Below are positions 11,701 through 64,000 of a DNA stretch of 64,000 bases, piece after piece. The DNA comes from Massalongia carnosa (lineage: Eukaryota): NCBI GenBank assembly GCA_965645245.1, contig OZ287068.1, positions 558,001-622,000 of the forward strand, read 5' to 3'. Numbering within the stretch: position 1 is the stretch's first letter; each line of letters starts with the position of its first letter. Under the pieces are notes generated by a model, which saw only the letters and a list, made by a program, of their open reading frames with translations, was not told the origin of the DNA and searched no databases. Position numbers and translations under genes: made by a program.

Positions 11701-12809
11701 AGACGTCTGAGAGAGGACGAGATGGTTTAGAGAGATAGACAATCACCAGAATAGAAGGATGTGCAGAAAGCAATGAGAAAATTTTCAAAGTGTCTCGTGT
11801 TTGTGCCTGAGCAAGGTGTTCTTCAATTTTTAATTTTTAGTTTTTAATTTTTAGCCTGTTGAAAGAGGAAGAAAATGATGGGAGGTTCGAAAGTGAAGGG
11901 AGACGAGGGGCGGATAGCGGTGGATGTGGAAATGATAGTATGTGGAAAGCATGAGTTAGGGCTAATGAGGCAGGAACGAACCTTGCAATCTCTCACCCAC
12001 TAGCCAGCCGAACAAGCTGCTTCCCTGTGTCTCTTCTGTTGAAAGGTGTCTGGATCGTCAGTGATAAAGTTCGCGTCGACTAGTATGGTTTTGCTAAAGT
12101 GCGATTGTGTGGAGATGTGGTGGAAGAAGATTCAACGCCAACATGCTCGAGGAGCCAGGGTTTGGGGAGGGAGAGAGAGTGTGTGGAACGGCTATCCGCT
12201 GTCGTCATGATACGAGTACGATTGTGATTCTGGTCCTTCATCTCAAATTCCCAAATAAAATTCGTTGCCTGGTACTGAAGGGAGGAAAAAACCCCGTTGA
12301 AGAGTCATTGGCAAGGAACCTCTCTTATCAGAACTGTGACGCCATTGTGGCGCGGTCGAACCAACCAGATCGGTTCCTCGGCTTGGACCTTGCCCTTTTA
12401 GCCACTAACGAGGCTTACGCTTCGACGGTCGTGATAACTGATAAGGCCCGCGCAACTTTCTAGAAGCAAATTGGGGCGTTTGTGGCATTTACCGGATTTG
12501 GGGCGCAAATGCTTGCTTGCGTACGGAGTACTTTGTACTACGTTACGCCAAGGTGAGGTAATTCGGCCCCGCCCGAAGCGTGGCGTGTGGAGTGGGGAAG
12601 GAGAACAAGTACTCCGTACTTTGTCATGCAAGCAATCGTGCCTCGGACGACGCCCCAGCCCCTCTTGGTGGATATGTGTTATGTACTCCGTACAGAGTAT
12701 AATGCCGTTTACGATTTCGATAAGGCAAAGGCCGAAGCGCCAACACCAAACAGGAAGCAATCGACCGATCTAAAAGGACAAGGGGTCGCATTCTATGCTC
12801 TCCAACGGT

Positions 12810-14132
12810 TTATTCCAGCTGTGAGGCTTGGTTGGTATACAACACATCTACAACGTTGCTCAACTTCTCGATCGTCTCCAACGCCGCATCGTACCCTTGA
12901 TCCCTTTCCGCTTCGTCATACACGATGAGGCAACCCGCACCCTGATCCAAAACCCCGGTGATAACCTTGTCCAGTATCATTTGGGATAGTTTGCGCTCCA
13001 CCTGCTGCGTGTCGAGTCCAACCATTTTGGCGATGTGCGCGATTTCTACCCTGCTAAATGGCTCGATGACTTTGACGAGATTCTGCTCCAACATGGCGTC
13101 ATACAGCCGCCGCAAGTGGTTTCGTATGAATGTATCGCTACCGAGCTCGTACCGATAGGTCGACAGGGCCTTCTCGTAGTCCTCCAAACTTCGGTTCGAA
13201 TGAGCACGGGCGACTGCTTTCATTGCTTCGAGATTCCTTCCGGAGTACTTGATAGCTTGCTTTGATGTCATCAGATTATTAACATCGGTACCCAAGTTAA
13301 GCATAATTTTGCATAATAACATGTATTGCAACGCCGAGGTTGCTTTTTGTGTCTCTTCCTGAGAATGGTGTCCCTCTAGCGCCTCGATGAAATACGAAAA
13401 GGCCGTATTAAAGTCCTGATCTTCAGCATGAAGCATGCCAGACTGCATATCCAGACCAGCTTGCAATAATGGAGGAGTATACACGGAAGCTGCCGATGTT
13501 CGGGCGGAGGTCAATGCAGCCCGAGCCTTTGGTTGGTTTCCAAGTGCATGGTAAACCCTTGACTCAAGCAGTTGGACCTCAACAAGCACAAGCTTGTCAT
13601 CCAACCGCTTAAGCTCTTTCAGAAGGCCGTTAATAAGAGTAAGGGCGTCGTAATAAGATTGTTTTTGCATGTAAAGCGAGACAAGTCGGGTTTCGAGGTT
13701 CTGACGTAGAAAACCTCGGCGCTCTGAGATTGCCCATTCTATACATGACTTGGTAACCGAAATTTGTATGTCAACCGTGTTGGGAATGGAGGAAAAGAGA
13801 TCGAGGAGTTGCCGGACTATCTATAGTTAGCAGTGAATTCATAGATGGGCCAAGTACTCCGTACCAAGTTTTGCAGTTTTGGCCTTGGCGAAGGAGGAAA
13901 GCGTTGATCTGCTTGTCTTAACAAGTCTTGCCAAATCATTTGGCTTCTTTGCAACCTGATATAGCTCCCCCAACCCCATCAAAGCTGTTTCATACTCTCG
14001 TAAAGCAGCTTCACCAGATCCTGGCCCCTTCGAGAGAATATCCTCATAGAGAGCCTCAGCTTTGGGCGGGTCAGTTTTGGCAAGCTTTTGAGCTTCTTCG
14101 ATTCGTTTCGAGTTGATGGGAGGTGGGGCCAT
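12810..14132 (-). CDS. RPN6: 26S proteasome lid subunit Rpn6 (PSMD11)
   Basis: FAKAKTAKL|VRQL, LKELKRLDDKLVLVEVQLLESR, AALTSARTSA, PCI domain (LSQMILDK…GVLDQG). Intron 13817-13864. Confidence 0.96.
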
Positions 14133-14371
14133 TATTAATGTGGCTTCTGATTTGCGGTGGTGAATGGCTGATGAAATGTCTACTGACAAAATGGAGTATT
14201 ATCAGCGCTAGGCAATCAGCTTCGGCCGGTAAAACATTGATGCGCTCCGCAAACATTCACATCCAGCTGTTGAATTTTATGCTACTCCAATGTCAAAACT
14301 CACTTTTAGAACCCTCCTGCAACTTTTAGATTACAAATCCGTTGATTAATTTAGTTAGGACATGAATCAAT
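14133..14371. promoter_or_regulatory. Compact divergent (likely bidirectional) promoter RPN6/SOF1
   Basis: Only 239 nt separate the two head-to-head ATGs (14132 and 14372). Confidence 0.55.
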
Positions 14372-15808
14372 ATGGTGATTTCTATGCTAAGCCCGCTCCT
14401 ATATGCATTCGCTAACTCTTGCAGAAAATAAAGGCTCTTTCGCGTCCAACGGCCTCGTATCAGGCCCCCGGTGCAAGTGTTGCAAGGCAGCCTCGGAATC
14501 TAGATCCCGCCCTGCATCCCTTTGAAAGAGCTCGAGAATACTCAAGAGCCCTGAATGCCACCAAACTGGAGAGGATGTTTGCCGCCCCCTTCATCGCTCA
14601 GCTAGGGAGGGGGCATGTGGATGGCGTGTATGCTATGGCCAAAGATCCGGAATCCCTTGAGCGTTTTGCCAGCGGCAGCGGAGATGGGGTAGTCAAAGTT
14701 TGGGATTTAACCAGCAGAGAAGAGATATGGCACGTGCAGGCGCACGAGGGCATCGTAAAAGGGATGTGTTGGACGAAAGACAAAAAGCTACTGTCTTGCG
14801 CAAGTGACAAGTCCATCAAACTATTTGATCCATACAATTCGGCTTCAGGAGCAGCCCCGATAGCCACCTATCTTGGCCAAACTGCCTTCACTAGTGTCTC
14901 ACATCATCGTGATCTTTCAACTTTCGCTGCCTCGTCAAGTGTTATTTCCATTTACGATCTCTCACGTTCTTCTACAATACCTTTACAGACCCTACAATGG
15001 CCTACATCCACTGCCACCATTAATGCTGTGGCTTTCAACCTGGTTGAAACTTCAATTCTTGCCTCGGCTGCCACAGACCGTTCTATCGTACTATATGATC
15101 TTCGAACCTCGTCTCCTTTATCAAAAGCAACTCTCGGGCTTGCATCAAATGCAATATCGTGGAATCCCATGGAAGCTTTTAATTTTGCTGTAGCCAACGA
15201 AGACCACAACGTATACATATTCGATATGCGGAAGCTTAACCGAGCCCTGAACGTTTTAAAGGATCACGTAGCTGCAGTCATGGACGTTGAGTATAGCCCC
15301 CATGGAGAAGAGCTAGTTACGGCCAGTTACGATCGAACAGTACGGCTATGGAATCGAGCCGGCGGCCATTCACGAGATATCTATCACACGAAGAGAATGC
15401 AAAGGTACCTAAAATCTAACTCTGTAGGGTAGACCTTGCTAAAGATTTAGGGTTTTCTCAGCAAGATTCACCCCTGATTCCCAATTCCTTCTGACTGGAT
15501 CGGATGACGGGAACATCAGACTCTGGCGTGCTCACGCTTCAAGACGGGAAGGAATCAAATCCACCCGTCAAAGGCAGAAACTTGAGTACGATGAAGCACT
15601 TAAGGAGAGATACCAACACATGCCTGAAATTCGAAGAATTAAACGTCACAGACATGTTCCTAAACAGGTGAAGAAGGCAGGAGAGATCAAGGGGGAAGAG
15701 CTTGCTGCGATTAAAAGAAGACGTGAAAACGAAAGAAAGCATAGCAAGAAAGGGCTAGTGAAGCGGCGCAGCGAACGGGAGAAAATGGTGCTGGCAACGG
15801 AGGAATGA
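14372..15808 (+). CDS. SOF1: U3 snoRNP WD40 protein Sof1 (DCAF13)
   Basis: M|KIKALSR, RNLDPALHPFERAREY, WD40 repeats, SRDIYHTKRMQR|VF, C-terminal MPEIRRIKRHRHVPK. Introns 14375-14424 (right after ATG) and 15405-15450. Confidence 0.96.
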
Positions 15809-16580
15809 TCCCGGTTAATGGATCCACAGACGCCTATAGCAAAGTCCAGGACAACCCAGGAAGTGCTTCGTTCAAGCAGCTTCAGGTTGCGCTCCTGGTA
15901 TTGAGTTTAAACGATAGAAACTCCCTGCTTGATCCTACCTCGTGTGATTTAGCTTGCGATAGGTATGTCTATCTCAGAATATTTTAATTCTAGATTAATA
16001 GGCTGACTATACCGGCTCTTCAAAAGCCAAACACCACAAGAGAAAGGAGGTATCAAGCCTAGAAGGTATCTGTGTTTTGGAAATCCATCATGCCACAGCA
16101 TAGACATCGGTGCAGCAGATATAGTCAGTTGTCTAGTGAACCAATTCCCTAATTATGGCGTTGAACATAGCTGCAGATTGTTTTATTTGCATCAATGAAC
16201 AACTCCTAGAGAATTTTAAGCCGATTAACGATTTCTATGTCGTTAGGGTTTAAAAGAGACACGGTTTAATTCATCTCAGAGTAATCCAATTAATTATCAG
16301 GTGGTCGTGTAAAAGATTATCCCTCTTAAGACATTTTGAAATACGTTATTGAACTGAAAGATTTTCAGCTTGCCCCCTACCATGCCCCTATGTCCTTAGA
16401 GTGCTCAGAGAGGACTAGCAGTTATCAGTTAGGGCTATGAGTTAGTTAGGTTTAAGTTAAGCGAGGCGCGATTCTATCCTTGATACAAAGCAACTAGTGA
16501 GTAGTAGATGAGCATCTTGTAGGAGTAACAGCGCAACCAACGGACAAACAGACTTGACGCAGCTTTTCCGAATCAGCGCG

Positions 16581-18257
16581 ATGAATCCGTCCATGTCGCA
16601 ATATCGTGGTAATGGCAACTACCATCACATTACCCAGAGATCACCCCATGCATCCGCGACGAAACGAGGTCTACGTGAGCCTAGGAATTCCACTCCCGCA
16701 TTTAGTTCCGAATTGTTAGCTAACACCTGATCTAGCTCCTATTTTGCCCCATTCTCAGCAAACGGCCAGTCCAGCCCAGGCTGAAGCAGCCCAAAAAGCC
16801 GCGAAGATGGCACACGAGGCGGCTAAACGACGTGCCCAAAGGCCTACAGACAAGAACATACCAGAAGGGGTGGAACATATAATCATTGGGGATGGCGTCC
16901 AGCAATACAAGCGATTGAGAGAAATCGAGAGGAAGCTGGACGCGGTCATGATGAGGAAGAGACTGGATATTCAGGACTTGGCACAGCAAGGCCCGAAGAG
17001 ATATAGGACAATGCAGATATGGGTTTCGAACACGGTGGAGAATCAACCGTGGCAAGCGAGAAACCTAGAATCAGATATGTTCGACTTCGACACGGGAGTA
17101 GAGGCAATGTACAAGGTCAAGATTGAAGGACGGCTCTTGGAGGAGGATGGTTTAGAAGACTCTCCAGGGTATGGCAGCGACGATGAAGACGGCGAAGATC
17201 CGACCAAATTTATCAAGACGGACGATTCTATGGTGTCAAGTGATGAATCTACAAAGCCAAACCAACCGCCCACAACCACAAGTACCAAAACCCGGCTCTC
17301 CCACTTCTTCAAAGCCATAACTATTGACTTCGACCGTAACAAAAACCTTCAACCCGAAATTGCCACCCAGATCGAATGGAAGAAGCCCCTTGTTCAGCCC
17401 GGTGCGTTGCTCCCCAAGGAAGCCGACTTTGACTGCTTGGAATTCGAGCGGAAAGGCGATGAGAACGTTAACTGTAACATTAACTTCTACCGGGACGAGT
17501 TCCCCGAGCGGTGGCGCTTGAGCAAAGAGCTCGGTGACCTGCTCGACACAGAAGAAGAGGAACGCGCCGTCATCATCTACAAGATCTGGGAGTACGTCAA
17601 GGCGATGAATCTGCAGCAGGACGAGGAAAAACGGCTTGTCCAATGCGATGACCGTCTCCGGGCCGCAAGTCTTCCATCCCCCCCCTCCTTATGGGCCAGA
17701 TCATACCAAACTAACCCTACTTTCTCCCATGTCTGCAGATCTTCAAAACCGACATCATCTTCTTTCCCGACCTTAGCACCACCTCTCTCCTCCTCCCACA
17801 CATCTCCCCCCTTCCCCCCCTCTCAATTCCCTACACCATCCGCGTCGACCCCCATTTCCATGCCCTCCAACCTACCCCGTCAACAAGCTACACCTTCCGC
17901 CTAGCAGGCCCCTCCCCCCTCGGACCGCTTCGAATCGCTCTCGCCCAGCCTCCCACCTCCCATCTCACCGTCCTCCGCCAACTAGCCACTTACGACGAGC
18001 ACCTCGCGCTTCTAGTGCAGGCCATGGCCGACTCCAAGGCCAAGCACGCCTTCTTGACCGAGATGAGTCGCGATCCCGTCCGCTTCGTGAGGCGGTGGGT
18101 GGGGAGCCAGAAGCGCGATCTGGAGGTCATTCTAGGCGAGTCGGGCAAAGGCGAAGATGCCATGGGAGAGGAGTGGAGGAGGGGCGGAAAGGGCGGGGTG
18201 TGGGGGACGGAGAATGTAAGGGAAAGCGTGGGGTTGATGGTGCAGAAGGCACGGTGA
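16581..18257 (+). CDS. SNF12: SWI/SNF-RSC SWIB-domain subunit (Snf12/Rsc6/Ssr3, SMARCD family)
   Basis: RPTDKNIPEGVE, ERKLDAVMMRKRLDIQD, IWEYVKAMNLQQDEEKR..CDDRL, FLTEMSRDPVRFVRRWVGSQKRDL. Introns 16675-16735 and GC-AG 17665-17738. Confidence 0.9.
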
Positions 18258-18986
18258 AAGGGTGAGGGTTACGCTTTTCTCTTTGGGTGCGTTTCTGTGA
18301 GAGAATGGTATATGATGGGAAACTTGGTGTTCTGGGGCTCGGATTGCCCGTTTCGCTTGGGTGGTGTACGATATATGTACTGTACCTGGAAAACCTTTGG
18401 CAAAATGTTACCTACATATGTAGTCGCGGCCAATGATCCAACGGGCGCATGTAGAGTAGACAAGTTCCATACACGGGAAAGCCCGCAACCGTAAGTAAAG
18501 TACCTGCCGCAACCGAAAGGAGGTCTTCGATTCTGCTTTTCTCCTTTGTGGCTTACTTTTTAGTCCTAGACTCAGACAAAATAACGCTCATCATAAACCA
18601 CCCTTCAAGTTACAAACGAAGACACAGGATTTACTTTTGACATCTTTGATACTATGTACCGGACCTGGGCATGTATGTATGGTGTGTATGCATGTCTTTC
18701 ATGGGCCTAATCGAAGCAGAGGGAAACCCCCTTTCCAATCCATGCAGTCATTAGCTCCTAGGGGTTAGAATCCTCCCCCTTAACCAGCCATCATCCACTG
18801 GCAACACCGATGACCTGGCAACACCTCCGCTAAAAAGGCAATGTCAAAAACCGAATATCTCAAGTCTTTCCCTCCTCACCCAGACCCTTTCCCCATCCAC
18901 GCCAAGAACAAGGAAAATCATGCCCTTTTCCTCTGCCCTTCCCTTTAAAGTACCCCAAAACCCTCAAACAGTCTGGGTAACTACAT

Positions 18987-21900
18987 TCATTCCTTACCGA
19001 AATAATCACTTCCCCCTTCTAGCGCCGCTGTCGGCATCTCGGTTCCAATCCCGCTATCACTTGTCTCTCCAAACAGCACCATCTCGTTCGCGTTGCCAAT
19101 TTCGCCCCCCCGCACGGAGGAATTCTCATATAACATGGGAGTAGACTCGCGCTCGTGCTCCACTTCCTCAACGTCGTCGTCGTCATCGATGAATTCGGAG
19201 TCAGAGACATCACCGTCCTCAGTCATCGGATCGTCCTTCGTTCCGAGTGATTCAACCGTGGAAGGCGCATAGCTGGTCCTCCGATCATCGGCGGAAACCA
19301 CGCTGCCATCCCCGTAACTCATAGTGCCAGTGTATGTGCCCGAATAGCTGGTTCGTCGCTCCGTACCTGTCTCGCTGCCTTCTCGATCTTCTTCTTCATC
19401 CTCCTCGTCGAGGATACTGTTTTCCTTGTCGTCTTCGTCATCAACGCCTTCATCTGCGTACATGCCTAGAGCCTTGGTTCCGCCCCAGCTAGCTTTACGA
19501 ACAGGGAAATTTGACTTCACGCTGTGGCTCCTCTTCACACCGCCAATCCCGAAGGCTGAGCCCTTTGTAAGACTGTCGGCGTGTGAAGCGTTTGCCAGCA
19601 CCATTGATCGCTCTGCATTAACCCCTCTATTGGCACCAAGTGTGCTGAGACTTAATATCCGTCGATCACCTTTGCCACTCACAGTGCTCGAGCCTGGTTT
19701 TCTAATAGGCTGTCGTCTTTTGAGAGCCATTCCAATTCCGCTGCTCACCGCGCTGGTCGCGTATGAGGGTGCAATGGGACCGCCTATACTAGTTCTAGTA
19801 GAAGATGTATTGTTACTCGCGGTTGACACAACTCTCTTAAGGTTCATCTCCTTCAAGCTTGACCGAGGCCTGGACGCGGTAAGTAGCGACCGTGAATGAT
19901 CTAACACACCATCAAGTATTCGTCTCTCAAGACCTTCGGCTCTAGTTTCCATAATATGAAGCTCCTCTCGGCGGATCTGTAGTGCAGTGTGTAGTGACGA
20001 AAGATCCGCTTGCATTTTCGATCTCTGGGCGATCAAGTCCTCTTTCACCAGTACAAGTTCTTGGACATCTTTATTTAGCTCGTCCTTGTGGGCCATCATC
20101 CGAACAATATCAGCCTCCACATGCTCCTTCTGCGAGATTCTTAATTTCAAAGCGACACCAACTTCTTCCGCCTCCTTGGCCCTATCATTGGCTTCCTGAC
20201 GAATCATAGCCTGCTGTCCAGCAACCAAGTTCTCAAGCTCTTTTGCTGTAGCACTCACCTGTTCCCGAATATGATCAAGCAGAGCGAATTGCGTGAGCGA
20301 TTTATTAGCCTCACCAGCATGCTCAACCAATTGGTCGAGCTTCGCATGAACTGCAGAGTCATTGTATGGCTCATGAACGGGAAACTCTATCGGCGTAGGC
20401 GGGGGCGCGGCGATCGCTGGTAGAGGAATAGCAGCGGGGATTGCTTGGACACTAGACTTGATTTCCTCCGCCGACGATTTAGCCTGTTCATAGTGTTGTT
20501 CGACAATGCCCAATACTTCTTGGATAGTTTCTAAGATCTTAGGCTGATACTGAGTTACATGCGCTTGCACACCCTCTACTCCTGTTAAAGTTTTCGAAAT
20601 CTCTGCTCTGGTAGACTGATGTTCACTCTTCACGTCTTGTGAGAGCAATTCATCAAGTTTGGAGCTCATACCTCCAATGCGTTCAAAGACTGTTTTTGAG
20701 TCCTCACCCAATCGTTCACATGATTCCGTGAGCGTAGAGCTAAGCGTATCAAGGACAGCTTTTAGGTCTTCAGTCGCGAATTTGGTAGCATTCAAAATAT
20801 CGGTTTGCTCCAGACTAGTCTCTTTGGAAGCTCTATCATGTTCTGCAGCAGCAACCTGAGCATCATCGTACTTCGTAAGGATCTCGTCGAAACGTTCCTC
20901 GATCTTTGAAAGAAGCTCCGTAATAATGGCAGTTTTATACTCATCGTGTTTTTCGAGCAGAGAGCTATGATGTTGCTCGCGTTCCAGCTCAGATCCAGCG
21001 AAATCTCCATGGATAGACTCAAATTCCCGGATTAGCATTTCTTTGAGCTCGTTAACTAGCGGTGTAACATCGCTGCCGACCACAGTGTCTGTAAAAGTTT
21101 CCAGTGTGGTAGTAAGCTCCCGGATGCTGTGTCCATCTTTGTCAAGTTTGCCCTTGAGCTCTGCTCGTACATCATCAAGAAAGAGCTTGACGTCCTCAAT
21201 CTTATCAGCGATTCCTCCATGTTCAATTTTACGTGACTCGAATGCTCGCGCAGTAAGTTCGGCATCTTCTTCCCTTCGCTCCCTGAAGTCTTTGATGAGG
21301 TCTCCAAGCAACTCAATTTCTGCTTTGGTAGGCATCATTTCTATGCCAGGTAGAACAATATCCTCGATGTGCGTTTTAGTATCCAGACATACAGTCTCTA
21401 AGTTCTCGAAATCAGATTTGCGGACTCTATCGTCAATGTCCTGCGCCAAAATCTTCTCGCGAACATCTTCTACACCTACAAATATTTCTTTAAGAAGGGC
21501 TTCTAGAATACCGACATCTTCTTTCGAAGCCTTTCCTGTACCGATGTCATTCACTGCATCCAGCGTTTCCCTTGTGATTGCTTCGACGTTCTCGATTTGT
21601 GCTACTCGAGCTAGACCTTCAGATTCGGCCGAAAGCATGTCATCAATCCTGGCTTTCGTGTTGCGTAATAATGTCTCGATGGCTTCGGTGTCTTCCTTAG
21701 TCACGGTGTCGTCCTGCTGAATTTGATTTCTTTGGGTAAGCTCTGCAATGGTAACCTGAACGTCTCGTAAGATGCCTTCAATATTTTCAAGGTCTTCTTT
21801 GACGAGAGCACCGTCGTTGTTTGGCGGAGCAGGCTGAGCTACCGGAGGTACCGGGGGCGTATCCATTGACTCTACCTTTATTCGAAGTTGAGTTATCATA

Positions 21901-24900
21901 ACCTCCAAGTTTTCGATATCGTTCCTTCGTAAGCTTTCAGCCTCTCCGTCAGCAACGATAACTTCTCCTCCTTTACTAGTCGTGATTTCCTGCTCAGCAG
22001 ATCGCAAGCGATCTACATCTGATCTAATGTTCGCTAGTCCTTCCTTTAAAGTGTCGAGTATCTCATAATTAACAGTCATGTCAAGGGGTTTGTTGACCAT
22101 TCTTTCCACATCAGCCCGAAGTCCGTCAAGCCCATCGTTTAGAGCATCCACAACCTCGCCACTAATCGATGAGACGCTTTCGGGTTTGTCCCGGTTTCTT
22201 TCAATGTCGAGCCGAACACTCTCAAGTCCGTCTCGAAGAGCCTCAAGTAGCTCTTCTTTATCAGCTGAGCAACTACCTCGGACTAGCGTGGTAGATAAAG
22301 TTTCCCGAAGGTGTTCGAGTTCCTCCTTCACTGTAATAATTGCCTCAGCATTGACGTCCCGGTTGCCTTCTTGTGCTAGGTTCTTCTTCAAAGCTTCTAG
22401 CCCATCTCTGATAGTATTTAGAATTTCTTGTTTATCGATCGTCGATGCTCCACTGGGTACTATTGATGTAGCAATGGTCTGACGAAGAAGCTCGAATTCT
22501 TTCTCCATGATATTAGAATTGACGTCCCGGTCGTTTTCTTGTAACATGTTTCTCTTCAAATCTTTCAACCCGTCTCTGATAGCATCAAGCATTTCTTCTC
22601 TATCAATTGCTGGTTCTTCACTACGTATCATTGATGTAGCAATTGTCTGACGGAGATGCTCAAACTCGTCCTTCATTGTATCAGCATTGACGGCCCGATC
22701 GCTTTCTTGTGGCATGTTTCTCTTGAGATCTTCCAGTCCGTCTCTGATAGCATATAGTATTTCTTCTCTATCGATCGTTAATCCTCCACTAGGCACGATT
22801 GACATAGCAATTGTTTGACGAAGGTGCTCAAACTCGTCCTTCATCGCATCAGCATTGACGTCTCGATCGCTTTCTTGTGGCATGTTTCTCTTCAGATCCT
22901 CCAGTCCGTCTCTGATAGTATCTAATATTTCTTCTCTGTCAGTCGTGGGTTCTCCACTACGTACCATTGATGTAGCAATGGTCTGGCGAAGATGCTCAAA
23001 CTCCTTCTCCATTGCGTCCAGAATTTCTCCGTTGTTGGAATTACCTGACTCACGCGGAGAATTTGCAATAGCACCTTCAAGGTCGACACGGAGATGTTCC
23101 AGGCCATCTCTTACGGTTTCAATTATTTCGTCTTTTCCGGTGACATCGGCCGCACGGTCAACATAGGTCTCTATGTCAGCGCGCAGAACTTCTAAGCCAT
23201 CTTTCATTGCATCAAGGACTTGTTCTGTATCTCCTCCATTGGCAACAGAGTACTGTTTGAACTCCACTCTCATCCCGTCGATGAGATCTTGCATCTTCTC
23301 TAGCACTTGCTCCCCAACGCCATCCATAGGTGTACGTGCACCCTCAAGGCCAGCCCTAACAGCCTCGAAGATATCATCACGGTTGAAATCAATCTCCTTA
23401 ACAAGTGGTCCTTGTGTTGAAAATCCTTCCTTAACAGCATCAATAACATCTTCGCGAGTCATCTCCAACTCTCGGGGTGCTCCAACACTCGATGTGGGAA
23501 ACTCAAAGGTGTCCAAGCATTCTCGGACGGTCATAAGGATCTCCTCCTTCGTGATACTTGCTTCAGTCTCTATAGGCGGAGGTGGCTTGAAGTGCTTAAG
23601 TCCCTCTTGGACAGCATCTAGAACCTCCTCATAACTAGCGCCACCGAGATCCTTGTTTTGTTCCTTTGGTTGATACTCTTGCAAGCCCTCTTTGAGACAC
23701 TGCAGAATTTCATCCCTTTCCAGTCCAAAGTTCTGCAGCTCAATCTCCGGTTTATAGGTCTCCCATGCTTCCCGGACAGCCTCGAGGATCTCTTCTCTCT
23801 CGATACCAGATCCAGAATGCTGCATGGCAATCTGCTGATGAAATGGACTTTCACTCAGTGCATTTTTGACAGCTGTGTAGATCTCTTGACTATCAACAGT
23901 ACTTCGAGATATGATAGAAGAACTGGACTGACGTCGCATCTCTCGCATCGAATTCTCCATATGATCTTTTAGCTCAGCTAAACCCTGCTCAACTATCTGA
24001 GCGATTTCGTCCCGGCTCGGACCTTGGTAGTCGGCTTGTTGACCCTGGATTGATTCTGCTTGATCCAGCTTTCGCCCAATTTCACGACCCATTCCGAGAA
24101 CCTCGCCACGAAGTTCCCTTACCAGTGCTTTGAGCTCCGCGGTCATCCCACCTCCTTCTGTAATGCTGTCTTTCATTTTTCTCAACATCTTGAGTATATC
24201 TTCACTGACAAACCCTGCAGCAGCTCCAGGATTAGCATGCAAAATCTTGCCCTCAACATTCATCTCACGGCTCGCGTGAGGATTTGTTCCACGGGATATT
24301 CGAGCTAATGACATGGATCGAGGGTCAAATTCTAATTCCAGCTTTGGAGGTATATCCCCGATTTCATTCCCATCATTTGTTTGGGTTACAAGTACTTTTT
24401 CGTTGCCCTCCTTTAAGAAAGCCAAGATCTCCTCTAACTTTTTAGCTACGGCTGGATCCGAATCTCTTGATTTCGATCGATCAAGTAGCTCAGAAAGAGA
24501 AGAAAGAAGTCGTTCCTGTCCTTCTTTCGTCCCCATTTCACGTAAAATCTTCTCCAGAAGCGCTATGCTAGCGGCACCATCCATGTTGTAAGGAGAAGCT
24601 ACGATTTCTCGATCTAGAGAAGCCGAAAAGCTATTTGGACTAGGTATTCTCGGTAGGGAGAAGCTCTTCGGCATTCCGGAGGGCGACACATGAGGTTTGC
24701 TGTCTATCAAGAATCCTCCCGGGCCTCGACCGTAATGACTAGTAGAGCGTGAGCTATTGTCAACACCCGGCTCAATCAGATGTGATGATAAATTTGTGAC
24801 TAGATCTCGCAAACTTGTTCGAATATCCTCATCTCGGAGGTTAGTGGCCTCCTTCAAGCTGATAAGGTCTGTAGCGTTGTCCTTGCTTCTCCTGCTTAGC

Positions 24901-25750
24901 TGGGCCATTTCCCGTTGCAAATTTGTCGCAATGCTTGTTAGGCTAAGTATTTGAGAAGAAATCGCCTCAAAAGTTTGTGGAGTTCGCATCATCGCAGAAG
25001 CGCCGTTTGTGATGTTCGAGAGGGAGGTGTCAACCTCCTTGAGAGCTGGGATGTTTTGCAAAGCAAGCATTGTAGATGAAGGAGGCGTATTTTCTCCTAA
25101 TATAGCCTTTAATGGAGGCCTCGAACTTGGTCGTAGAATAGGCGTGTCTCTTGCAAATTCCTTCGCATTGGGGGTTGGGGTTCCTGTCCGTGTCGGGCTT
25201 CTCTCAGGAGATCTGTTTTCAAAGTCAAACGCAGTTGTACGAGGTAATCTTTCAGGTGAGCGCTCTACGGATGATGCTCCATCAAGATAGTTGTTTCGAT
25301 CCCGAACGTTTCCATGCCCGTTTTGCAGCGATTGCATTCGTTTATGGTATTGACCTTTGATCAATGACCTTTCCGGTGATCTATTTGGTAGCGGATTCGT
25401 AGTATATGCACTTTCTCGGGCCTTGGCCGTCAATGCTTCGGCGGCTGCTGTTATGGAGGCCGATGTATTGGGCTTCGTTGCTGGACTAGAGCCCGGATTC
25501 ATAGGTAAAGGAGGGGGTGCACGATCAGGATCCGAGCTGTCCCACCTGTATTTTCCAAGTAGTGATGTCAGTTTCATTGAATCCGCACAAAGCAATATCA
25601 GCTATCCTGCCTTACGTGCAGGAATTGCCTCAAGCGCCCTTTGAAGATTGCGTACATTGGGACAGATGCGCGACCTGAATCAGAGAACGAGGGTTGGTGC
25701 TTGAGGACAAGCTCGCGGTCACGAGACTCTTCTCTGTCTACTGACGGCAT
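18987..25750 (-). CDS. Large (~2200 aa) Pezizomycotina coiled-coil protein, often auto-annotated 'chromosome segregation ATPase family'
   Basis: 6.5-kb open frame with conserved-looking N-terminus VPM|WDSSDPDRAPPPLPMNP and RRSKDNATDLISLKEAT. Short exon 1 from ATG 25750; intron 25546-25655. Long heptad-rich body and acidic tail. Confidence 0.85.
22341..23012 (-). repeat. Coding tandem repeat, 4 x 168 nt (56 aa)
   Basis: Units start at 23012, 22844, 22676 and 22508. Consensus M(E/K)(K/D)EFEHLRQTIA.S...SG....D.EE.L..IRDGL.DLK.N..QE.DRDVN. Confidence 0.92.
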
Positions 25751-29676: not shown

Positions 29677-29916
29677 GGTTGATGAGGGCTTTGGCAATAA
29701 AAAAAAAAACTAACTTTTGCCTTTGTTGACGCGGAAGAATTTAACAAATGCTGAAATCTGATGTGATTCAAGGTACCTAGTTAACTAAGAGAACGTTACC
29801 TTACCAAACAAGAGTGACATCACAATACTTTGAGGAATCTGTTCGGTGTAACTTAAGTAACGCGATTACGCGTTTAGTTACTCAAATATACGCGCAGCGT
29901 TCAGTGCCCCTCCTTC

Positions 29917-32900
29917 GAGAAGACTCGGGACAGTCCCCCCCCACCGTCCCCCTAGCGAAAATCATTCCAAATTAGGACTAGCTACAAGCCACCTCCCCAT
30001 ACTAAATAATTAGGTGCATATACCTCGTTCACCGTCTCTATTAATAATATTATAGGTATAGGCAACCCTCTGTATAAATTTACCACTATGATAGGTAGAC
30101 CGCACTTCTTCTCTCCCTTATCTTTTTCTTTGCTATGGCCCTCACATCCACGTCCCTGGATGCACGTTTGCAAAGGGCTATAGCGAGTTTACCGTCTTCT
30201 CATCGTCTTCCTCCGAGTGAGAGTGAAATCTTTATCTCCTGGGAGGAGGGAAAAAACCCGCCTTCAGAATTATGCCTTTACTCAAGGCTTTGCATTGGTC
30301 ACAGAGACTAATGATAAGAAGAATCATCTCGTTATACTAGATTGCACCCGTCATCACAAAAGAGAAAGAAACACTAGAAAGCTAGAGGAGAAGGACCGCG
30401 TACGAAAAAACACGAAGGTCTCGTTCAACGAGTGCAAATATCGACTAAGACTGAAGCAAAACAAAGACGAATCGTGGAGATTAATCATCACCAATCCTGA
30501 TCACAATCACGAGATGGCTACAGACCCCTTCGGTTTCAAAGAGCATCGTAGCCAAGACCTCGATCGAGCAACTGCCCTAGATCAAGCAAAAAGTCTCCGT
30601 GATGCATCAACTAGATACGGTCAAACATCTCGCGTTTTGGGAATGACTGGCCTGCGCCTTTCGAAGAAGGACTATTACAACCTGGCTCGATCCCAGGGCA
30701 AACATACACCTGAAGAAGAGTTGACCTATGCACTTGGATTTCTAGAAGAAGGGTTTCATGTACGGACTTTGGAGAAATATCTCGTTGAAAACAATACTCC
30801 CCGAAGACGTGTTGTTGAACATTTCTTTTTCTGTAACGCTGAACAGATCCGACTGACTAGACGATTCGTCAGTGGATTTTTGATAGAAACGGATGCTACG
30901 TTCAATACAAATCAGTTGAACTTACCTCTATCGGTGTTGGTTGGCATCACCAACACAAATCAGACTTTCCCCGCGGCCTATTGTTATATAACTTCTGAAT
31001 CGGCTGAGTGCTTTACGTTTCTATTTGACTGTATGAAAGATCTCTTTTTTCATGATACATGTCCTGGTCCTAGGGTCATCCTCGGAGACTTCGCCGCTGG
31101 ATTGACTGCAGCGATGCATAAAAAACGGGCTAAGGAAATAAACCCGGATGCAGCAATGACCGTTGCATGGCAAGTCGCCCAATCAATACACGGAACCGAC
31201 CCTGATTGTGTGTTGCAATTATGCACGTGGCACGCAGCGGAGGCAATCAAGAAACGCCTGATCAGGGCGGGTTCATATCCTTTAGAAGTACGGAAAGAAC
31301 TGCATGAATTGATATGGGAGTGGATCAAAACTCCTACCGTTGAACAGCTGGATGAGAAGAGAAACGCGTTGATATTGAAGCTTCATGCTTCAGAAAAGGT
31401 ATGAAGCCATCAAAAAACTTTAATAAGGGCTAACTCACTCCTATTTCCAGGAGTATTTTACTAGCTATTATCAACGTCAGGAGTGTCAGTTTGTTTCCGC
31501 ATACACCAGAAAGTTCCCTAATTTAGGTGCACATAGCACACAAAGGGTGGAAGGTTTGCATCCGTTGGTAAAGAATGTGACAAATAGGCATACACCTATT
31601 AAGGACTCGGTGCGGAAAATATGCGAAACAGTGCAAAGGGTTCAGGTTGACTACGAAATATCAACCAATCATCAACGAATCAACAGCCCTCGGCTAATGG
31701 ATAGAAGTGCGTTCAAAGACCTTATAGGTTTAATAACTCATCATGCTATTGACCTCATATCTAGAGAGTTGGATGCAGCTAAACTTTTAGCCGAAGATTT
31801 CAATCAACAGGCTGCTTTTGGAGTTGAAGGGACTGCATTAATCGAACCAACCGGTGAGGATTGTATGTATGATTGTGATTTGCCTCCACGATACGGTCTT
31901 CCGTGCAGATGCTGGTTGTATCGTTGCGTCATTGATGTTATCCCCATACCTATCTCCCTCATTCATCCCCGCTGGTTTTTCGATAGCCCGCCTTTTGTGG
32001 TCTCGTAGAGCATAGTTTTCGACCCCACCATAAATTTCGCTGAGATGTTTCGGAGAGCAGCTCACAGAAGACCACAGAAGAGCAGGATGAGGAGGCGGAT
32101 GAGGGGGGGAATGCTCAACAAAGTCAAGAATCTGAGCCGGAGGAGGAGATCGAGAAGGCAGTTGACAATAATACTGGGGATAGATTTCGTCGCGGGGGTG
32201 TTGATTTGCTGCATGCGGCCGCACATCAATCTATTGATTTTCATAAATCAGTAGAAAATTTGCATAGAAGGGAGGGATACGCTCGTGAATTCGCCAAATT
32301 CACTGCTATTTTCAATAAAAAATGGCAGGATAAGGAGCTGGCGAGGCCACTTATCCCTACAACTTTCCCCGACGAAATCTGACCGAAGGACAACCTCATG
32401 TATAAAAAGAGTGGGAGTCGCCGGCGGGCTTACACTGGCCGTGAGGCAGCTGAGGCAGATGAAGCTAAGCAGCGACGTGCTAAACGTAAGGACTCGATTG
32501 AAGAAGGGAGGAGAAGAAGGCATGAGGATGAATTGCGGGCAGGCGGTGAAGACAAGGGTATGATTGATGATAAAAAACCCACGATATCAGCAAATCGATC
32601 GATGTAGCGCGGCTAATATTCGGTATAGATTCTGGAGATGCTATCATCGTATCTGACGACGATGCCCTGCAATATATAGCAACTCAGCCTACCCCCGATC
32701 CTCCACTCTCTCTGAATGAGAATGATGATTTTATCCCTCCATCCCCGGCATCTTCTTCCGATTCATTTGAAGATATTGATGAAGTGCTGGCGAAACATAG
32801 CCAAAAGGCTCTTTCCCAAACGGTTCCCTCTCCAAAAGCTCCTTCCCTTTATAGCCTCAGTCAAAAAAACATCCGCGCTAGCCAGCTACCATCCACATCG

Positions 32901-33323
32901 TCTGCAACAATAACACGAGGGTCACGGGGTGTGGTAGCCAAAAAATCGAAGGCTCAGTTAGAGTTAGAGTCTCAGCAGAGGGCCGACCAAGCGGCCAAAC
33001 AAGCAAGGGCTGAGGAGAGGAAAAACGCAGCTACAAGAAAGGTTGCTAAGACTATGAAGCCTAGAAAGGATAATGTTTCGCAATTGAGTGATGCATTTTC
33101 AGAATTGAGATCATCGCAATGAGTGGTAGGAGTAGTAGTAATAGTAGTAGAATAGATGAGGATTTTTCAGAATGCGGGGCTAAGCTAAATCAGCTAGAGG
33201 AAGCTTGCGGAGAGACGGTGGACGTTCACATATTTAGTATGGGGAGGTGGCTTTTAGCTAGTCCTAATTTGCAATGATTTTCGCTGGGGGGACGGTGGGG
33301 GGGGGACTGTCCCGAGTCTTCTC
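29917..33323 (+). mobile_element. Mutator-like (MULE/Hop-like) DNA transposon
   Basis: TIRs 29917-30008 and 33231-33323 (GAGAAGACTCGGGACAGTCCCC…, ~4 differences). Perfect flanking duplication GCCCCTCCTTC at 29906-29916 and 33324-33334. Internal MULE transposase. Confidence 0.95.
30135..33122 (+). pseudogene. MULE transposase, disrupted
   Basis: FAR1-like N-terminus (C…HNH), ETDATFNTN (D1), ILGDF (D2), LCTWH (CxxH), NLGAHSTQRVEGLH (E) and SWIM-like GLPC. Introns 31399-31450 and ~32558-32628. Lesions: extra A in the run at 30251-30256, TAG 32006-32008, frameshift near 32045, TGA 32380-32382. Confidence 0.88.
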
Positions 33324-33386
33324 GCCCCTCCTTCACAATCAAATCGTCCAAAATTCCTCAACGGAGTCATCACCCCGCATCTCGCT

Positions 33387-54711: not shown

Positions 54712-56195
54712 ATGGGCGCCGATCTAGAAAAGGAGCGTCTGTCGGCGGACATTGCTCGATCCAAGCCAAGCTCACCGATCCTTCCTACTTTCAATCCAGC
54801 TCTAGAGAAGACAGAACCTTCAGCTTCAAAGATACATCCTGCCGTATACGTCATGTGGGTGGTATCGTTGAGCTCTGATGATTGTTTGGAGGCTGACTGC
54901 ACCACCATGCAGCTCATGGATTTCGCTTAGCTCGACCACCATCTTATTCAACAAATGGATTCTGAGCAAAGACTCGCTAGACTTTCGTTGGTGATTCCGG
55001 CCTACATGAACCTCAAGGTTTTGCTAACTGATGGGTCTAGATTATCGTACGCCTACCTCTATGAACACCAATCATTCCTAGCTAATGACTCGCCTGTGTG
55101 ACAGCGATTGTCCTGACAACATGGCATCTTGTCTTTGCGACAATTATGACGCAAGTTCTATCACGGACAACAACGCTACTAGATGGGCGTAAAACAGTTA
55201 AAATGACCGGGAGGGTGTATTTGCGCGCCATTGTTCCAATCGGGGCGTTTTTTAGCTTATCACTTATTTGCGGGAACTTGACATACCTATATCTCAGCGT
55301 GGCTTTCATTCAAATGTTGAAGGTCCGTTGCCCCTAAGCCTGATAGACACCTACGGATTCTAATATCGGAAGTAGGCCACCACACCCGTTGCAGTTCTAC
55401 TCGCCGGGGCAGCTATGGGCGTGGATAAAGCCGATAAGAAAGTTCTTTTCAACGTATCTTTCATCGTCCTAGGGGTTGTTATCGCCTCCTTTGGTGAGAT
55501 CAAATTTGTCCTCATTGGATTTTTATTCCAGCTTGGAGGCATCTGTTTTGAGGCTATTCGACTGGTTCTAGTTCAAAGCTTGCTAAGTTCTGCTGAGTAC
55601 AAGATGGATCCGCTGGTGTCACTATACTATTTTGCTCCCGTTTGTGCGCTGATGAATATTTGTTTCTCGTTGATATTCGAGATACCAAAGATCACAATGG
55701 CAGAAGTATACCATGTCGGCTTCTCGACGTTTCTTCTCAATGCTACTATCGCATTCGCCCTGAACGTCTCCGCCGTCTTTCTCGTGAGTAGAGGCACATT
55801 TTGTTAAATTGGTTTCATGCTGGCTGACCAGAAAGCAGATCGGTAAGACATCATCATTAGTTCTCACGCTTTGTGGCGTACTCAAGGATATTCTTTTGGT
55901 CTTTGCTTCGATTGCCATTTGGGGTACCCCGGTTTCAGGGCTTCAATACTTCGGTTACAGCATTGCCCTGGGCGGCCTCATCTATTATAAACTAGGTGGT
56001 GAAGTGCTGAAGGCACAATTTGGAGAGCTGAATCGTGCATGGGCTGAGTATGGCGTCCGTTACCCTGCTCTGCGCAAGATCGTTGTCTTTGGTGCCGTTC
56101 TGCTGTTCTTGTTACTTGTTCTCGGGGAGATTGCACCTAGAGTGGGCTATGAATCCATCACGTCCATTATTACCGAAAATGAAAAGGTCGCATAA
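54712..56195 (+). CDS. glfB: UDP-galactofuranose transporter (nucleotide-sugar transporter)
   Basis: HPAVYV, LTTWHL.FAT, TTTLLDGRKTVKMTGRVYLRAIVPIG, YLSVAFIQMLK, KMDPLVSLYYFAPVC, IGKTSSLVLTLCGVLKDILL; near-identical to Aspergillus GlfB/UgtA. Five introns, including a 6-nt exon at 55041-55046. Confidence 0.92.
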
Positions 56196-56545
56196 GATTC
56201 TTTCTCGAGCAAAGTCCCTGGCTAGATGAGGATGTGTGGATTTTGATCCACTACATAAAGTCTTGTTCTTTCGGGCTTATGGCGCTTAGGCTATGAGTGC
56301 TGATGATAGGGAAGCTCCATAGATATCACGTTTAATTGTTGTTGGGCGAATACGATTAATTTTAAGCGCAAATTTGTAAAAAAGACAAACACATTTATAC
56401 ATATCTTAAACAACAGATTGATCCCGAGATTTGACATGATTATACCTATCTATGCAAGGTTCATCATCGTTAAAAAGATCTTACTCTGTATTTAAAGTCA
56501 GCCACGTTTATTCGTAAGGTAACTTATTCCGTACTCATTACTTAC

Positions 56546-56788
56546 CACGCGGTGCGAAAAATAGTTGACACACCAAAAATATAAAATAATTATGATAGGC
56601 TACATCGTTAAGTAAAACATTTCAAAAAAGTTAAGGTGAATTTGAACACATAAATCTATTACTCTATCAAGTCTGTTTTACTGGTTCATCTGTTGTTGAT
56701 TTTCTATATTATGTTGAAGCTTTGATCGTTGTGTAGTTTTATGCGTACTGACGAGTTTTGGTGTGTCAACTTTTTTTCGCACCGCGTG
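56546..56788. mobile_element. 243-bp MITE with 33-bp CAC-start TIRs and 5-bp TSD (Transib-like signature)
   Basis: Left TIR CACGCGGTGCGAAAAATAGTTGACACACCAAAA (56546-56578); right TIR 56756-56788 with 1 mismatch. CTTAC at 56541-56545 and 56789-56793. AT-rich non-coding interior. Confidence 0.9.
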
Positions 56789-56916
56789 CTTACCTAAATG
56801 GCACGCTAGGTAAGTTACACTTAGCTACGTATGAAATTCAAGGCGTGACGGTATGATTGATCTACTTTGTAGATATTCTCAGCTATGGTTAATCAATCTC
56901 ACTTTATATTCCTAGT

Positions 56917-59900
56917 ATGGACCAGACAGATGGGCTTGACGAAGCTCAACAACTTCCGCCCGCTGGTCTCTATGAGCGGCTCGCGCAGCTCTCCGGGTAT
57001 AGCTGGGATCAGTCATTAGCACCCTTCCATTCAGTAAGCAGATTCGCGATGGTTAACCGACCGTAGCACTGGGCTGACCTTGTTGGATACAGAGTTATGA
57101 TAACTGGCATGTTTTTGGTATTCAGCATGCCTTACGTGAATCGTCAGCCGCCTCGTCGTTGCATGAAACCGCCAGAACAAATTCGTCTAAAGGCTCTCCT
57201 CGACCCCTGGCTAAGCATCATGGGACCAGTAGCGATAAAGTCTACGATATCTCGTCTGCGAAGTCGGGAAGTGAAAGAACTTATATCCCCGTGGTTGCTC
57301 GTATCTCAACCCACGTACTCCGCCTCGAGCGAGAGTATCATTTCAACAAAACATTTATGCAAACCTCAGATCCTGAATGTAACCATACCGTGCGACTTAT
57401 TGATCTTGTAAGACTACCTAGTCATCAAGGTGACCCAAGCGGCACTATGATTGTTTCGATATTCGAGGCGCCAGGGCGGAATTATTTACAAGACCTTCTC
57501 AATTTTAGTTCGATGTGTTCACCGCCTGTGTGGTTCAAGGCGGCAAAGTCAGACTCGACCCCGAGAGTTACTAAACAACTTGATAGAACTGACAGTGGTA
57601 GTCAAAGTCTACAGGGTCATTTACCACTCTCAACGTTCCTTGACTTCGCCATTGGAGCCTGTGAATGCTTGGAGCTAATGCATCATGGGATTAGAGTGGT
57701 TCACGGCGAGATACGGGGGGACGCTTTCTACTTCAACCAGGAAACGGGAGCTGTGAAAATCATCAATTACGGATCCGGGCCACGGTCATTTGAAAATGGG
57801 CTGACGAGCACCGGTTGGCTGGCATTGTCTCGCGAGATTGGAATTAAGAGTAAGCTTCAATTCGTTGCTCCAGAACAAACTGGTCGCATGCATGCAGAAC
57901 CAGATAGTCGAACAGATATCTACAGTCTTGGGATACTCTTCTGGACTTTGCTTACTAGGCAGGCTGCTTTCGACGGGGATACACCGCTTGACGTGGTTCA
58001 GGCTGTGCTGGGCCGTCGAATTCCGCCTGTATCGGCTTTCCGCATCGATATCCCAGATGCTATTTCAGGCATCATTCGAAAAATGACGCAGAAACAGATT
58101 GACGAGCGCTACCACTCCACGAGCGGATTGAAATATGATCTTGTCGAAATTCAAAAGATCCTTGGAGATGGCGATAGCGAAGCGCTTGCGAACTTCAAGA
58201 TCGGCTCCAAAGACGTCTCTTCATTCTTTGTGCTTCCCACTAGTATTTTTGGAAGGGATAATGAACATGAAAGAATCGTAAAAGTAATCGAGAAAGTTTC
58301 CCACAGACAACAGATAACAGTCGACGCGAGTATGGCTGGAGCTTTGGACCTGAACTCTACTTCAACGTCATCAATATCAGATGGGCGCTATGACGCTCTT
58401 GAGACTGGTACTAAATCCAGTGATACAAGCTCTCAGGCTGGGAAGGAAACGAGATATAGCCCTTCGCTAAGTGCAATACATTCGCCTTATCCAGGCATAC
58501 GGCCACTGCAACTTGATTCTCAGGATAATTTAGATATCAGCGCGTCGCCTACCAAGCCCTCTACCAGTTCTTCTCATAACAGAGACCTGCTCGACCTTAG
58601 GGTTGCTTCAGAGCATCAAAGTGATGTTCCTAAAATTAGCAAACCTACAAATCTAGGTGCTGTGAACATCTCAAATGGAGCGGGCAACCAAAAATATAGG
58701 CGGAGAGGTAAATGTGAAGTGGTGACAATTGTTGGGGTGGCGGGATCTGGGAAGTCATCCCTCATTCAAAGTACCCAAGGAGAAATCCGGCGACTAGGAT
58801 ATTTCGCCTCAGCCAAGTTTGACCCTGCAAGGAAAGCGCCATTCGAGCCGTTGCTCCGCGCCATGGGATCTTTGTTTCGTCAGATCTTCTCGGAAAGCGA
58901 TATCAATAGTAATTATCACAACACAGTTCGTGGAAACATTGGGGCATTTTGGCCAACCCTCTGCAGCATGCTTGATCTGCCCGAAAGTCTCATATCTTTG
59001 GATGCCCAATACACAGCTCGCGCAGGTACTGTTTCTTCGCAGCATGGATCACATCTGTCTCTCCGACCGGAAATAACAGGTGCCTCCAGTACGAGCGGAA
59101 ATAGCAACACTGGGTCTCACGCATCTTCGGATTTCTTCCGAGGTAGTACAAATCCACGATCTCTAAAATTCATGCACGTTTTTCTTGAAGTTTTACGTGT
59201 ATTGTCCGCCAACAAGCTAATCTGTTTGTGTCTTGATGATTTGCAATATGCGGATGAAGAGAGCCTCGATCTAATCTCCAATATCATGTCGAGAAAGTTA
59301 GGAATAGCCATTATAGTAAGGTTTCCGCACACATTATAGGTATTTGATAAACTCATTAATGATGCAGGTCACTTGCCGCGAGGAAGGGATGGTATCTGGC
59401 AGAATCAGATCCGTCCTTGACGGCGGAAGTGCAAATGTGACCCAGATAAAGCTAGCACCGTTAGAGAAGCAGGACATTATCCAGTATGTCGCAGCTACAC
59501 TCTATCGACCTCAAGAATATGTGCTTCCATTAGCACTTATATGCTTGGAGAGAACAAACGGGTAAGCTCCATATTCTGGGTCTTAGTTTTGAATGCATCT
59601 TAGCCTCAATTTAAAAACCCCCTCTAATTTGATTAGAAATCCGTTTTATTTGAAACAGATGCTTGAGGTCTGTCATCGTAAGGGATGCCTTTGGTATTCC
59701 TGGAAGTCATCCGTATGGGAGTATGATATCGATAAAGTCTTCTCGGAGTTTGAAACCGAGAACTACGGCCAAAGGCTCAATACTAGCTTCATAACAAAGA
59801 GACTGCAAGACCTACCTGCAGCTGCTCGTTCAATTCTTGCATGGGCATCCTTGATCGGAAACACGTTTTCCTTCAAATTGATCCAAAGGCTCCTCAGCGG

Positions 59901-62900: not shown

Positions 62901-64000
62901 GGATGAAACGCAAAAGCAAGTTCTACTATATACCATGCGGTTCAAGGAGATTGTTTTCGTCCGTAATGTGGTTCATGATGATAGGTTTTGCAACACGCCA
63001 TCCATCAAGTCGGTTATATCTCTGCCTATTATCCAAGGGAGCGATCTGTTAGGAGTACTCTATTTAGTAAGTCTATCTGTTCTAAGACAAAGCAGTTTTC
63101 GAATTAGACTTAGTTGAAATAAACAATAAATCCAAACACCTATTCGACGTATTCTTTGTATACGGGTAATCTAAGCTAATTTTCTGCTAGGAAGGTCAGC
63201 CCAATTCTTTCACAGATCGTAACCTTGGTGTACTACAGTTACTCTGTAACCAGGTTGGTATCTCGATTTCCAACGCTCTTCTTTTTAGGCGGATTAGAAA
63301 AGTCTCAGCTTTAAATACTAGCATGATAGAGTCACAGAAGCGCGCTCTAGCTAAGGCTCGAGAAGCCGAGACCAAGGCCAAACTTGCTGAAGCTGAAGCA
63401 ATGAGGAATGCAAAAGCGAAGTCTATATTTTTGGCGAATGTTTCCCATGAACTCCGGACTCCTCTGAATGGTGTCATTGGTATGTCAGAGCTGCTTAAAG
63501 CTACGTCTCTGAACAGGGAACAAGACGGATACGCCGATTCTATCCGTGTCTGTGCAGGTAAGAGTATTCCCGTATATCCATTAGAAGTTATATATTGATG
63601 TTGGAAGATACGCTATTGACGGTCATCAACGACATCCTCGACTTTTCAAAGCTGGAGGCAGGAAAGATGAAACTCTTTAGCGTGCCGCTGAATCTTAGAG
63701 ATACCATTACCGAAGTAGTTCGAGCTTTATCATACACTAATATCGAACGTGGTTTGCAGACCATAGAAGATTTAGACCTGGACTCAACAACGCTGGTATT
63801 TGGCGATCCTGTCCGATTGCACCAAATCATCATGAACCTGCTTAGCAACAGCTATAAGTTTACTGCCAAAGGCTCTGTGACGGTACGATCCCGGACCGAA
63901 TGCGAAAATGATGAAATCATTCGCGTTACCTTTTCCGTGACGGATACGGGAATTGGTATCACACAAGAGCAAGTCTCTAGGCTTTTCAGGCCCTTTTCTC
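56917..64000 (+). CDS. Group X hybrid histidine kinase (Chk1/Mak2-3/PhkA-like), 3' incomplete
   Basis: Exon 1 MDQTDG…[13 protein letters not shown]; degenerate Ser/Thr kinase domain ([22 protein letters not shown]); P-loop GVAGSGKS with [23 protein letters not shown]-box [19 protein letters not shown]-box [15 protein letters not shown]. Many introns. Confidence 0.95.

Follow-up and report, generated by a model that had tools for sequence, protein, structure and literature searches.

RAG1 and the signal sequences of V(D)J recombination derive from a lineage of transposons called Transib. Its members move by cut and paste, have terminal inverted repeats (TIRs) that start with CAC and generate target-site duplications (TSDs) of 5 bp, as set out by Kapitonov and Jurka in 2005 (PMC1131882) and for HzTransib of Helicoverpa zea (PMC4840297, PMC1852546), whose TSDs are reported to be 'invariably 5 base pairs' (PMC4840297). 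According to the 2005 description, the CAC start is invariant and opens a 38-bp TIR consensus made up of the heptamer CACAATG, a 23-bp spacer and the A-rich nonamer AAAAAAATC, positions 5 and 6 of which are called universally conserved; the targets are described as G+C-rich (PMC1131882). Non-autonomous derivatives have also been reported, for example Kodama from Nozomi (preprint 10.64898/2026.08.26.747230). The same preprint ascribes 3-bp and TA duplications as well as starts other than C to the lineage, describes the heptamer-spacer-nonamer layout as variable within it and lets classification rest on the transposase.

Two further groups are relevant for comparison. Fungal members of the CMC or 'CMCT' clade (EnSpm-like, Plavaka, ESTA; Kojima 2025, PMC12730594) end in 5'-CA...TG-3' and have TSDs within the clade's range of 2-5 bp; those described carry duplications of 2-3 bp or TA and come from Basidiomycota (rusts, agarics). 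For CMC elements proper, TSDs of 2-4 bp are given, compared to the 5 bp that is canonical for Transib (PMC1131882; preprint 10.64898/2026.08.26.747230). The hAT5 group, listed among the animal hAT families, makes a 5-bp duplication, and the third terminal base of hAT elements is G (PMC12730594; PMC1131882).

The reported distribution of these groups in fungi is uneven. In 2005, soybean rust was the only fungal source of Transib given by Kapitonov and Jurka (PMC1131882). Muszewska et al. compared fungal genomes with the Pfam RAG1 family PF12940, obtained no match and stated that Transib 'is missing from Fungi', while CMC elements were found mainly in Basidiomycota and Mucorales (PMC5751038). 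Tao et al. listed 20 fungal Transib-like proteins in 2022, the only ascomycete record being one without recognisable ends, and the patchy host range of Transib is argued there to reflect horizontal transfer (PMC9435367). With such proteins on record from fungi, the discovery of Transib in a fungus would not be wholly without precedent. The literature covered, with subscription journals and Repbase outside its range, yielded no description of a family like the one reported here in lichen fungi.

The element described below resembles Transib, a cut-and-paste transposon, in its CAC TIRs and its 5-bp TSD. With the fungal CMCT elements it has in common the 5'-CA...TG-3' termini, a TSD within the range of the clade and a fungal host, and with hAT5 the length of the duplication. 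Compared by its ends only, it differs from Transib in its heptamer (4/7 positions agree), in having no nonamer common to both arms, in a target, CTTAC, that is not G+C-rich, and in its lichen-forming ascomycete host. It differs from the described fungal CMCT members in its 5-bp duplication and again in its ascomycete host, and from hAT elements in the C at its third position.

A short inverted-repeat element upstream of a hybrid histidine kinase gene

Positions 56546-56788 of the window, by which we mean the whole 64-kb stretch of DNA that was analysed, are a copy of a non-autonomous DNA transposon (MITE) that encodes nothing. Its insertion site is a small palindrome in an intergenic region, with a transporter gene on one side and a hybrid histidine kinase gene on the other. 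The features of this region are as follows.

55376-56195 (+): 3' part of a triose-phosphate-transporter family gene, with the stop codon at 56193-56195, 350 nt before the MITE
56541-56545: left TSD copy, CTTAC, identical to 56789-56793; the outer bases of the two copies differ
56546-56788: MITE, 243 bp, AT-rich (33% G+C), non-coding
56546-56578 (+): left TIR, 33 nt, starting with CACGCGG, 97% complementary to the right TIR; pairing ends at position 33
56579-56755: interior, AT-rich (29% G+C), non-coding, with stops in all six frames
56756-56788 (-): right TIR, 33 nt, ending in CCGCGTG, pairing with the left TIR
56789-56793: right TSD copy, CTTAC, matching the left copy
56794-56815: remainder of the target palindrome; the element-free site consists of ACTTACCTA, a 10-nt loop and TAGGTAAGT, with a perfect 9-bp stem
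56917-56919 (+): ATG of the hybrid histidine kinase gene, 128 nt past the TIR end; the gene runs off the window

The two arms of the MITE are paired at 32 of 33 positions and have 177 nt between them. Their sequence is CACGCGGTGCGAAAAA[T/A]AGTTGACACACCAAAA, the bracketed T versus A being the single mismatch, at TIR position 17. Among the 21 inverted pairs found in 56300-57100, this pair is the best by far, the runner-up being 20 nt long with 75% pairing. An A precedes the left CTTAC and a C follows the right one, and outward extension of the TIRs is blocked by C versus C. As the bases beyond CTTAC differ and the TIRs cannot be extended, the direct repeat is exactly 5 bp long. These observations confirm the near-perfect 33-bp TIRs and the exact 5-bp TSD that the first-pass annotation of this DNA had recorded.

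We found the 16-nt start of the TIR at three places in the 64-kb window, namely in the two arms and, with three mismatches, at 31604, compared to 0.31 matches expected; none of 100 shuffles reached three matches. In addition, the window was scanned for CAC...GTG pairs with 14-nt arms, up to two mismatches and a distance of 60-6000 bp. The MITE is the sole one of the resulting 12 inverted pairs that combines 0 mismatches with a 5-bp flanking repeat, while the flanking repeats of the other 11 measure 0 bp (7 pairs) or 2 bp (4 pairs). Neither a second copy of the MITE nor another CAC...GTG element with a 5-bp repeat was found in the 64-kb window.

The downstream gene shows Pkinase-like, AAA_16, TPR, HisKA and HATPase_c domains in Pfam. 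A degenerate protein-kinase domain and AAA_16 lie in a frame at 57078-59339, which is followed by TPR-like frames, and HisKA (63191-63598) and HATPase_c (63562-63999) come near the window end; the last two domains substantiate the histidine kinase that had been named at first pass. The 28-residue translation from the ATG at 56917 aligns with the N-terminus of P0032 (eukaryote-annotated, from a Letrouitia MAG), indicating that this start codon is sound, and the earlier figure of 128 nt between the element end and the ATG thereby stands as well. All taxon-named relatives of the kinase are from lichen-fungus MAGs, with about 48-55% identity, and the best of the remaining relatives reach 66-67%. 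One of the runs containing the locus is labelled lichen metagenome. The named relatives and this label are in line with the ascomycete host that had been proposed.

The intergenic DNA between the transporter and kinase genes measures 721 nt with the MITE and 473 nt without it. In a relative, a single predicted protein (P0062) carries both PF03151 and PF13191, indicating that the transporter and kinase genes are adjacent there, too. Between the MITE and the kinase ATG, we noted a candidate 106-nt 5'-UTR intron at 56810-56915 (+) with canonical GTAAGT...TAG borders. If this intron is real, transcription would start within about 20 nt of the MITE, inside it or upstream of it, and the MITE would fall within the core promoter or the first exon. 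The MITE now belongs to the upstream region of the kinase gene and is fixed in the runs seen; judged from its position, it may influence the promoter or the 5' UTR of the kinase gene.

The window otherwise consists of gene-dense housekeeping DNA, including genes for RPN6, Sof1, SWIB, L27e and a protein kinase. The Pfam scan covered 53 of the 83 frames of at least 110 aa; of the other 30, 10 were scanned separately and 20 are shadow frames that overlap larger ones. An uninterrupted open frame of 2,204 aa at 18990-25601 (-), unusually long for an unannotated fungal frame, gave no Pfam match with an E-value of up to 0.001. The window also contains an intact-looking MULE of about 3.4 kb (29916-33324), with TIRs of ~93 nt (29916-30008 and 33231-33324) that are 96-100% paired, a 9-bp duplication, CCCCTCCTT, on either side, and an ORF at 30217-31404 with MULE transposase and FAR1/AFT DNA-binding domains. 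This is the sole transposase in the window, and the TIRs of the MULE are unrelated to those of the MITE.

Copies in public runs and their target sites

Five of the seven public runs listed contain the locus, and contigs of four of them (X1, X2, X3 and X5) were aligned to it at 80% likeness. This gave 562 contig pieces, of which 504 are at least 95% like the window. Summed contig depth rises steeply over the MITE in each run: from 26.6 in the flanks to 448-1210 in X1 (17-45x), from 865 to 120,224-161,216 in X2 (139-186x), from 455 to 12,010-24,647 in X3 (26-54x) and from 4.2 to 84-212 in X5 (20-50x). The ratios were taken in bins covering 56532-56775, and we read them as a family of tens to more than 100 copies, the depths being sums over all aligned contigs and not copy numbers in themselves. 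The MITE family is thus real, multi-copy and fairly young, and it resides in a lichen-forming ascomycete. The view taken at first pass of a young, non-autonomous element agrees with the 17- to 186-fold depth in all four runs and with the high likeness of most pieces.

The contigs also delimit the element. Contigs with unique flanks stop 27-30 nt inside the MITE; this holds for either side in X1, X2 and X3 and for the left side in X5, and short-word assemblies break in this way at repeats. At the right junction, 31 contigs were available from 24 of the 50 loose-end rows. Directly after 56788, 15 of them depart from the window sequence, whereas 7 depart after 56789, 5 after 56790, 2 after 56793 and 2 slightly earlier. 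These departures of other copies from 56788 onward confirm the right boundary, and contig pieces that begin at 56545 or 56546 agree with the left one. Beyond 56788-56793, the other copies continue into unrelated DNA. The window copy is unlike nearly all others at 56616, 56654 and 56727. We also observed contigs in X1, X2, X3 and X5 that have only the right TIR (56756-56788) in common with the MITE and a different interior, with loose ends before 56756. They represent either another subfamily or a longer and perhaps autonomous element that shares these ends.

The insertion at this locus was seen in all four runs, including X1, where 8 of the 776 left-flank positions deviate. An empty site, which had been suggested as a check of the insertion, did not turn up: no contig bridging the insertion was found in the four public runs, where contigs show presence rather than absence. 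Contigs leading from flank to element were present for either side in X1-X3 and for the left side in X5.

Flanks of other copies provide information on target choice. At two other loci, (T)ACTTAC lies directly left of CAC (X1 at place 56539, X3 at place 56540), and the sequences upstream of these loci resemble neither one another nor the window. On the right side, CTTAC immediately follows GTG in two X1 contigs (place 56793). The frequency of ACTTAC in the window is 1.6e-4 per site, so that far fewer than one such flank would be expected among some 50-180 copies, indicating that CTTAC is a recurrent target and that the 5-bp repeat described here is no accident of this locus. Its recurrence on both sides of the element speaks for a 5-bp duplication elsewhere too, the left and right flanks being unphased. 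A further left flank (X2, place 56543) has just TAC in common with this locus, and the other right flanks begin with CGTGC, CCATG, CACGG, CCTTG, CTAGC, AGGTG or GCCGG. In a hand count of nine distinct right flanks, a small sample in which the first base is biased by alignment extension, G+C amounted to 29/45 at +1 to +5 (~64%) and to 18/45 at +6 to +10 (40%); CTTAC itself is 40% G+C.

Many of the right flanks listed show NTACA at +6 to +10 after 56788, behind five variable G+C-rich bases. The motif is absent from the window copy and from the CTTAC-flanked copies, and no mirror image of it is present in the four left flanks that can be seen. A 9-bp duplication of the MULE type, to which the TAC found at +7 to +9 in many right flanks pointed, was rejected for the window copy, whose flanks share just five bases. 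GTAAGT, the usual 5' splice site of fungi, is complementary to ACTTAC. Reading the element as an introner was likewise rejected: an intron running from the first GTAAG to the second would take out 253 nt and, with them, 5 nt of original sequence, and the window copy lies in no recognisable minus-strand gene.

At the locus under study, the insertion fell in the left arm of the palindrome (56540-56545 and 56794-56796). Palindromes of such quality occur three times in the 63.7-kb element-free window and cover 0.12% of positions, and the coincidence is a single post-hoc observation. RAG transposition in vitro favours hairpin targets.

Searches for the family in other collections yielded no further copies. 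The 16-nt TIR start occurs at no fewer than 119 loci of the metagenome collection, all of them single matches. A BLAST comparison of the MITE with these loci gave stretches of at most 22 nt (L064) and 20 nt (L119), which we dismissed as chance matches, both being located in G+C-rich DNA and devoid of a partner arm. A 24-nt TIR pattern was found at none of the loci in prokaryote genome contigs and viral contigs, a search that is silent on fungi. For a 48-aa frame leading from the right flank into the MITE, no match was obtained among predicted proteins of 26-84 aa.

Assignment to a transposon lineage

Judged by three terminal bases and one TSD length, the MITE family probably belongs to the clade of CACTA, Mirage, Chapaev and Transib-related elements ('CMCT'), with Transib as the closest described pattern. 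The 5'-CA...TG-3' termini, the C at the third position and the 5-bp duplication speak for this clade, while the NTACA at +6 to +10 of many other right flanks is unaccounted for by the model. In such a model, a DDE transposase encoded elsewhere in the genome would bind the 33-nt TIRs and excise the MITE at its CAC/GTG ends. The excised element would then be joined to a target cut with a 5-bp stagger, the repair of which would leave the CTTAC duplication.

A narrower form of this explanation is that the family derives from a genuine Transib transposon with a RAG1-like DDE transposase in the lichen fungus. We consider this possible, although the evidence is divided and we would not yet expect it to be so. 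An exact 5-bp duplication next to a CAC start is the canonical pair, the recurrence of CTTAC beside copies elsewhere agrees with a stagger fixed at 5 bp, and the G+C content of the first five bases in the nine right flanks gives a weak hint of a G+C-rich 5-bp target. Moreover, the 20 fungal records of Transib-like proteins include one from an ascomycete, Erysiphe pulchra; this single published ascomycete record, on a 3,970-bp contig, comes without identifiable TIRs (PMC9435367), and the fungal survey reported zero RAG1-domain matches (PMC5751038). The ends themselves argue against Transib as well. The heptamer CACGCGG agrees with CACAATG only at CAC and at G7, on both arms alike, and with a spacer of 12 or of 22-24 the two arms have no nonamer-like stretch in common: the best match, 7/9 at spacer 22, is confined to the left arm, the right arm reaching 4-5/9, and none of the spacings tried puts an A at both position 5 and position 6 of the nonamer. 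The target CTTAC, finally, is not G+C-rich.

The other readings of the element are less probable. A mover outside the CMCT clade, be it hAT5-like, an atypical MULE or a family undescribed in ascomycetes, is rather unlikely. The NTACA in many right flanks would fit a longer or unusual target, and an intact-looking MULE is present in the same window; this MULE, however, has unrelated TIRs and a 9-bp duplication, and the flanks of the MITE share only 5 bases instead of the 9-10 bp that accompany the long TIRs of Mutator-like elements. The third terminal base of hAT elements is stated to be always G (PMC1131882, Fig. S7 legend), so that the C at 56548 excludes hAT, including hAT5. We regard it as still less likely that a CMC-type lineage (EnSpm/CACTA, Mirage, Chapaev, fungal EnSpm-like, Plavaka or ESTA) with a real TSD of 2-4 bp is responsible, and that a duplication of 3-4 bp was lengthened by chance. 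By simple arithmetic, a 4-bp TSD would appear as 5 bp in about 1/4 of cases and a 3-bp TSD in about 1/16. CAC...GTG termini, which the MITE has with GC and not TA after CAC, are common to EnSpm-type elements, among them fungal ones with 3-bp TSDs (PMC12730594), and the X2 flank that has only TAC in common with this locus would agree with a shorter duplication. Against this, the full CTTAC lies beside CAC at two or more other loci and beside GTG in two contigs, so that five bases recur and not three; the MITE has a TSD of 5 bp instead of 2-4 bp. PlavakaA (TGT..ACA) and PlavakaB (CATCA..TGATG) have termini unlike those of the MITE (PMC12730594), and CMC elements are reported mainly outside Ascomycota in the fungal survey (PMC5751038).

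Hardly credible, in turn, is an immobile local hairpin, for instance a palindrome that regulates the kinase promoter, or a gene for a hairpin or miRNA-like RNA located there. When folded in single-stranded form, the MITE DNA does reach -47.9 kcal/mol compared to -21.9 +/- 3.5 for 200 shuffles (z -7.4), and its only Rfam match is RF04128, a long miRNA-precursor hairpin. This match stays far under the gathering score (23.9 bits versus 211; E 0.04), the sequence is flanked by a duplication, and in each of the four runs it recurs at least tens of times between unrelated flanks, which in practice refutes the hairpin.

The first-pass annotation had called the element Transib-like and had taken the CAC start together with a 5-bp TSD as the hallmark of that lineage. 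The pair is indeed canonical, and the 2-4 bp given for CMC set it apart (PMC1131882; preprint 10.64898/2026.08.26.747230), but duplications of 3 bp and TA are described within the Transib lineage too (preprint 10.64898/2026.08.26.747230) and hAT5 also makes 5 bp (PMC12730594), which leaves the TSD as supporting evidence only. The label itself keeps its CAC start and 5-bp TSD, and the heptamer-spacer-nonamer layout is not evident. As a proposal drawn from the ends of one family, the Transib label is a reasonable lead, with two hallmarks present and one defining layout not recognisable.

Overall, we tentatively suggest that a Transib/RAG1-like lineage, or an unrecognised relative that cuts CAC ends with a 5-bp stagger, may have been active recently in lichen-forming Ascomycota. 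The MITE family with its tens to more than 100 copies would be the trace of this activity, and the transposon would prefer CTTAC-type, perhaps hairpin-forming, targets. If the autonomous partner is not a Transib, 'CAC plus 5 bp' is not diagnostic, which matters for the automated classification of transposable elements. If it is, the family would record Transib activity in Ascomycota, a phylum in which the kingdom-wide survey reported no Transib transposase (PMC5751038), and an abundant, young ascomycete family with clean ends and duplications would allow ends, targets and transposase to be studied together.
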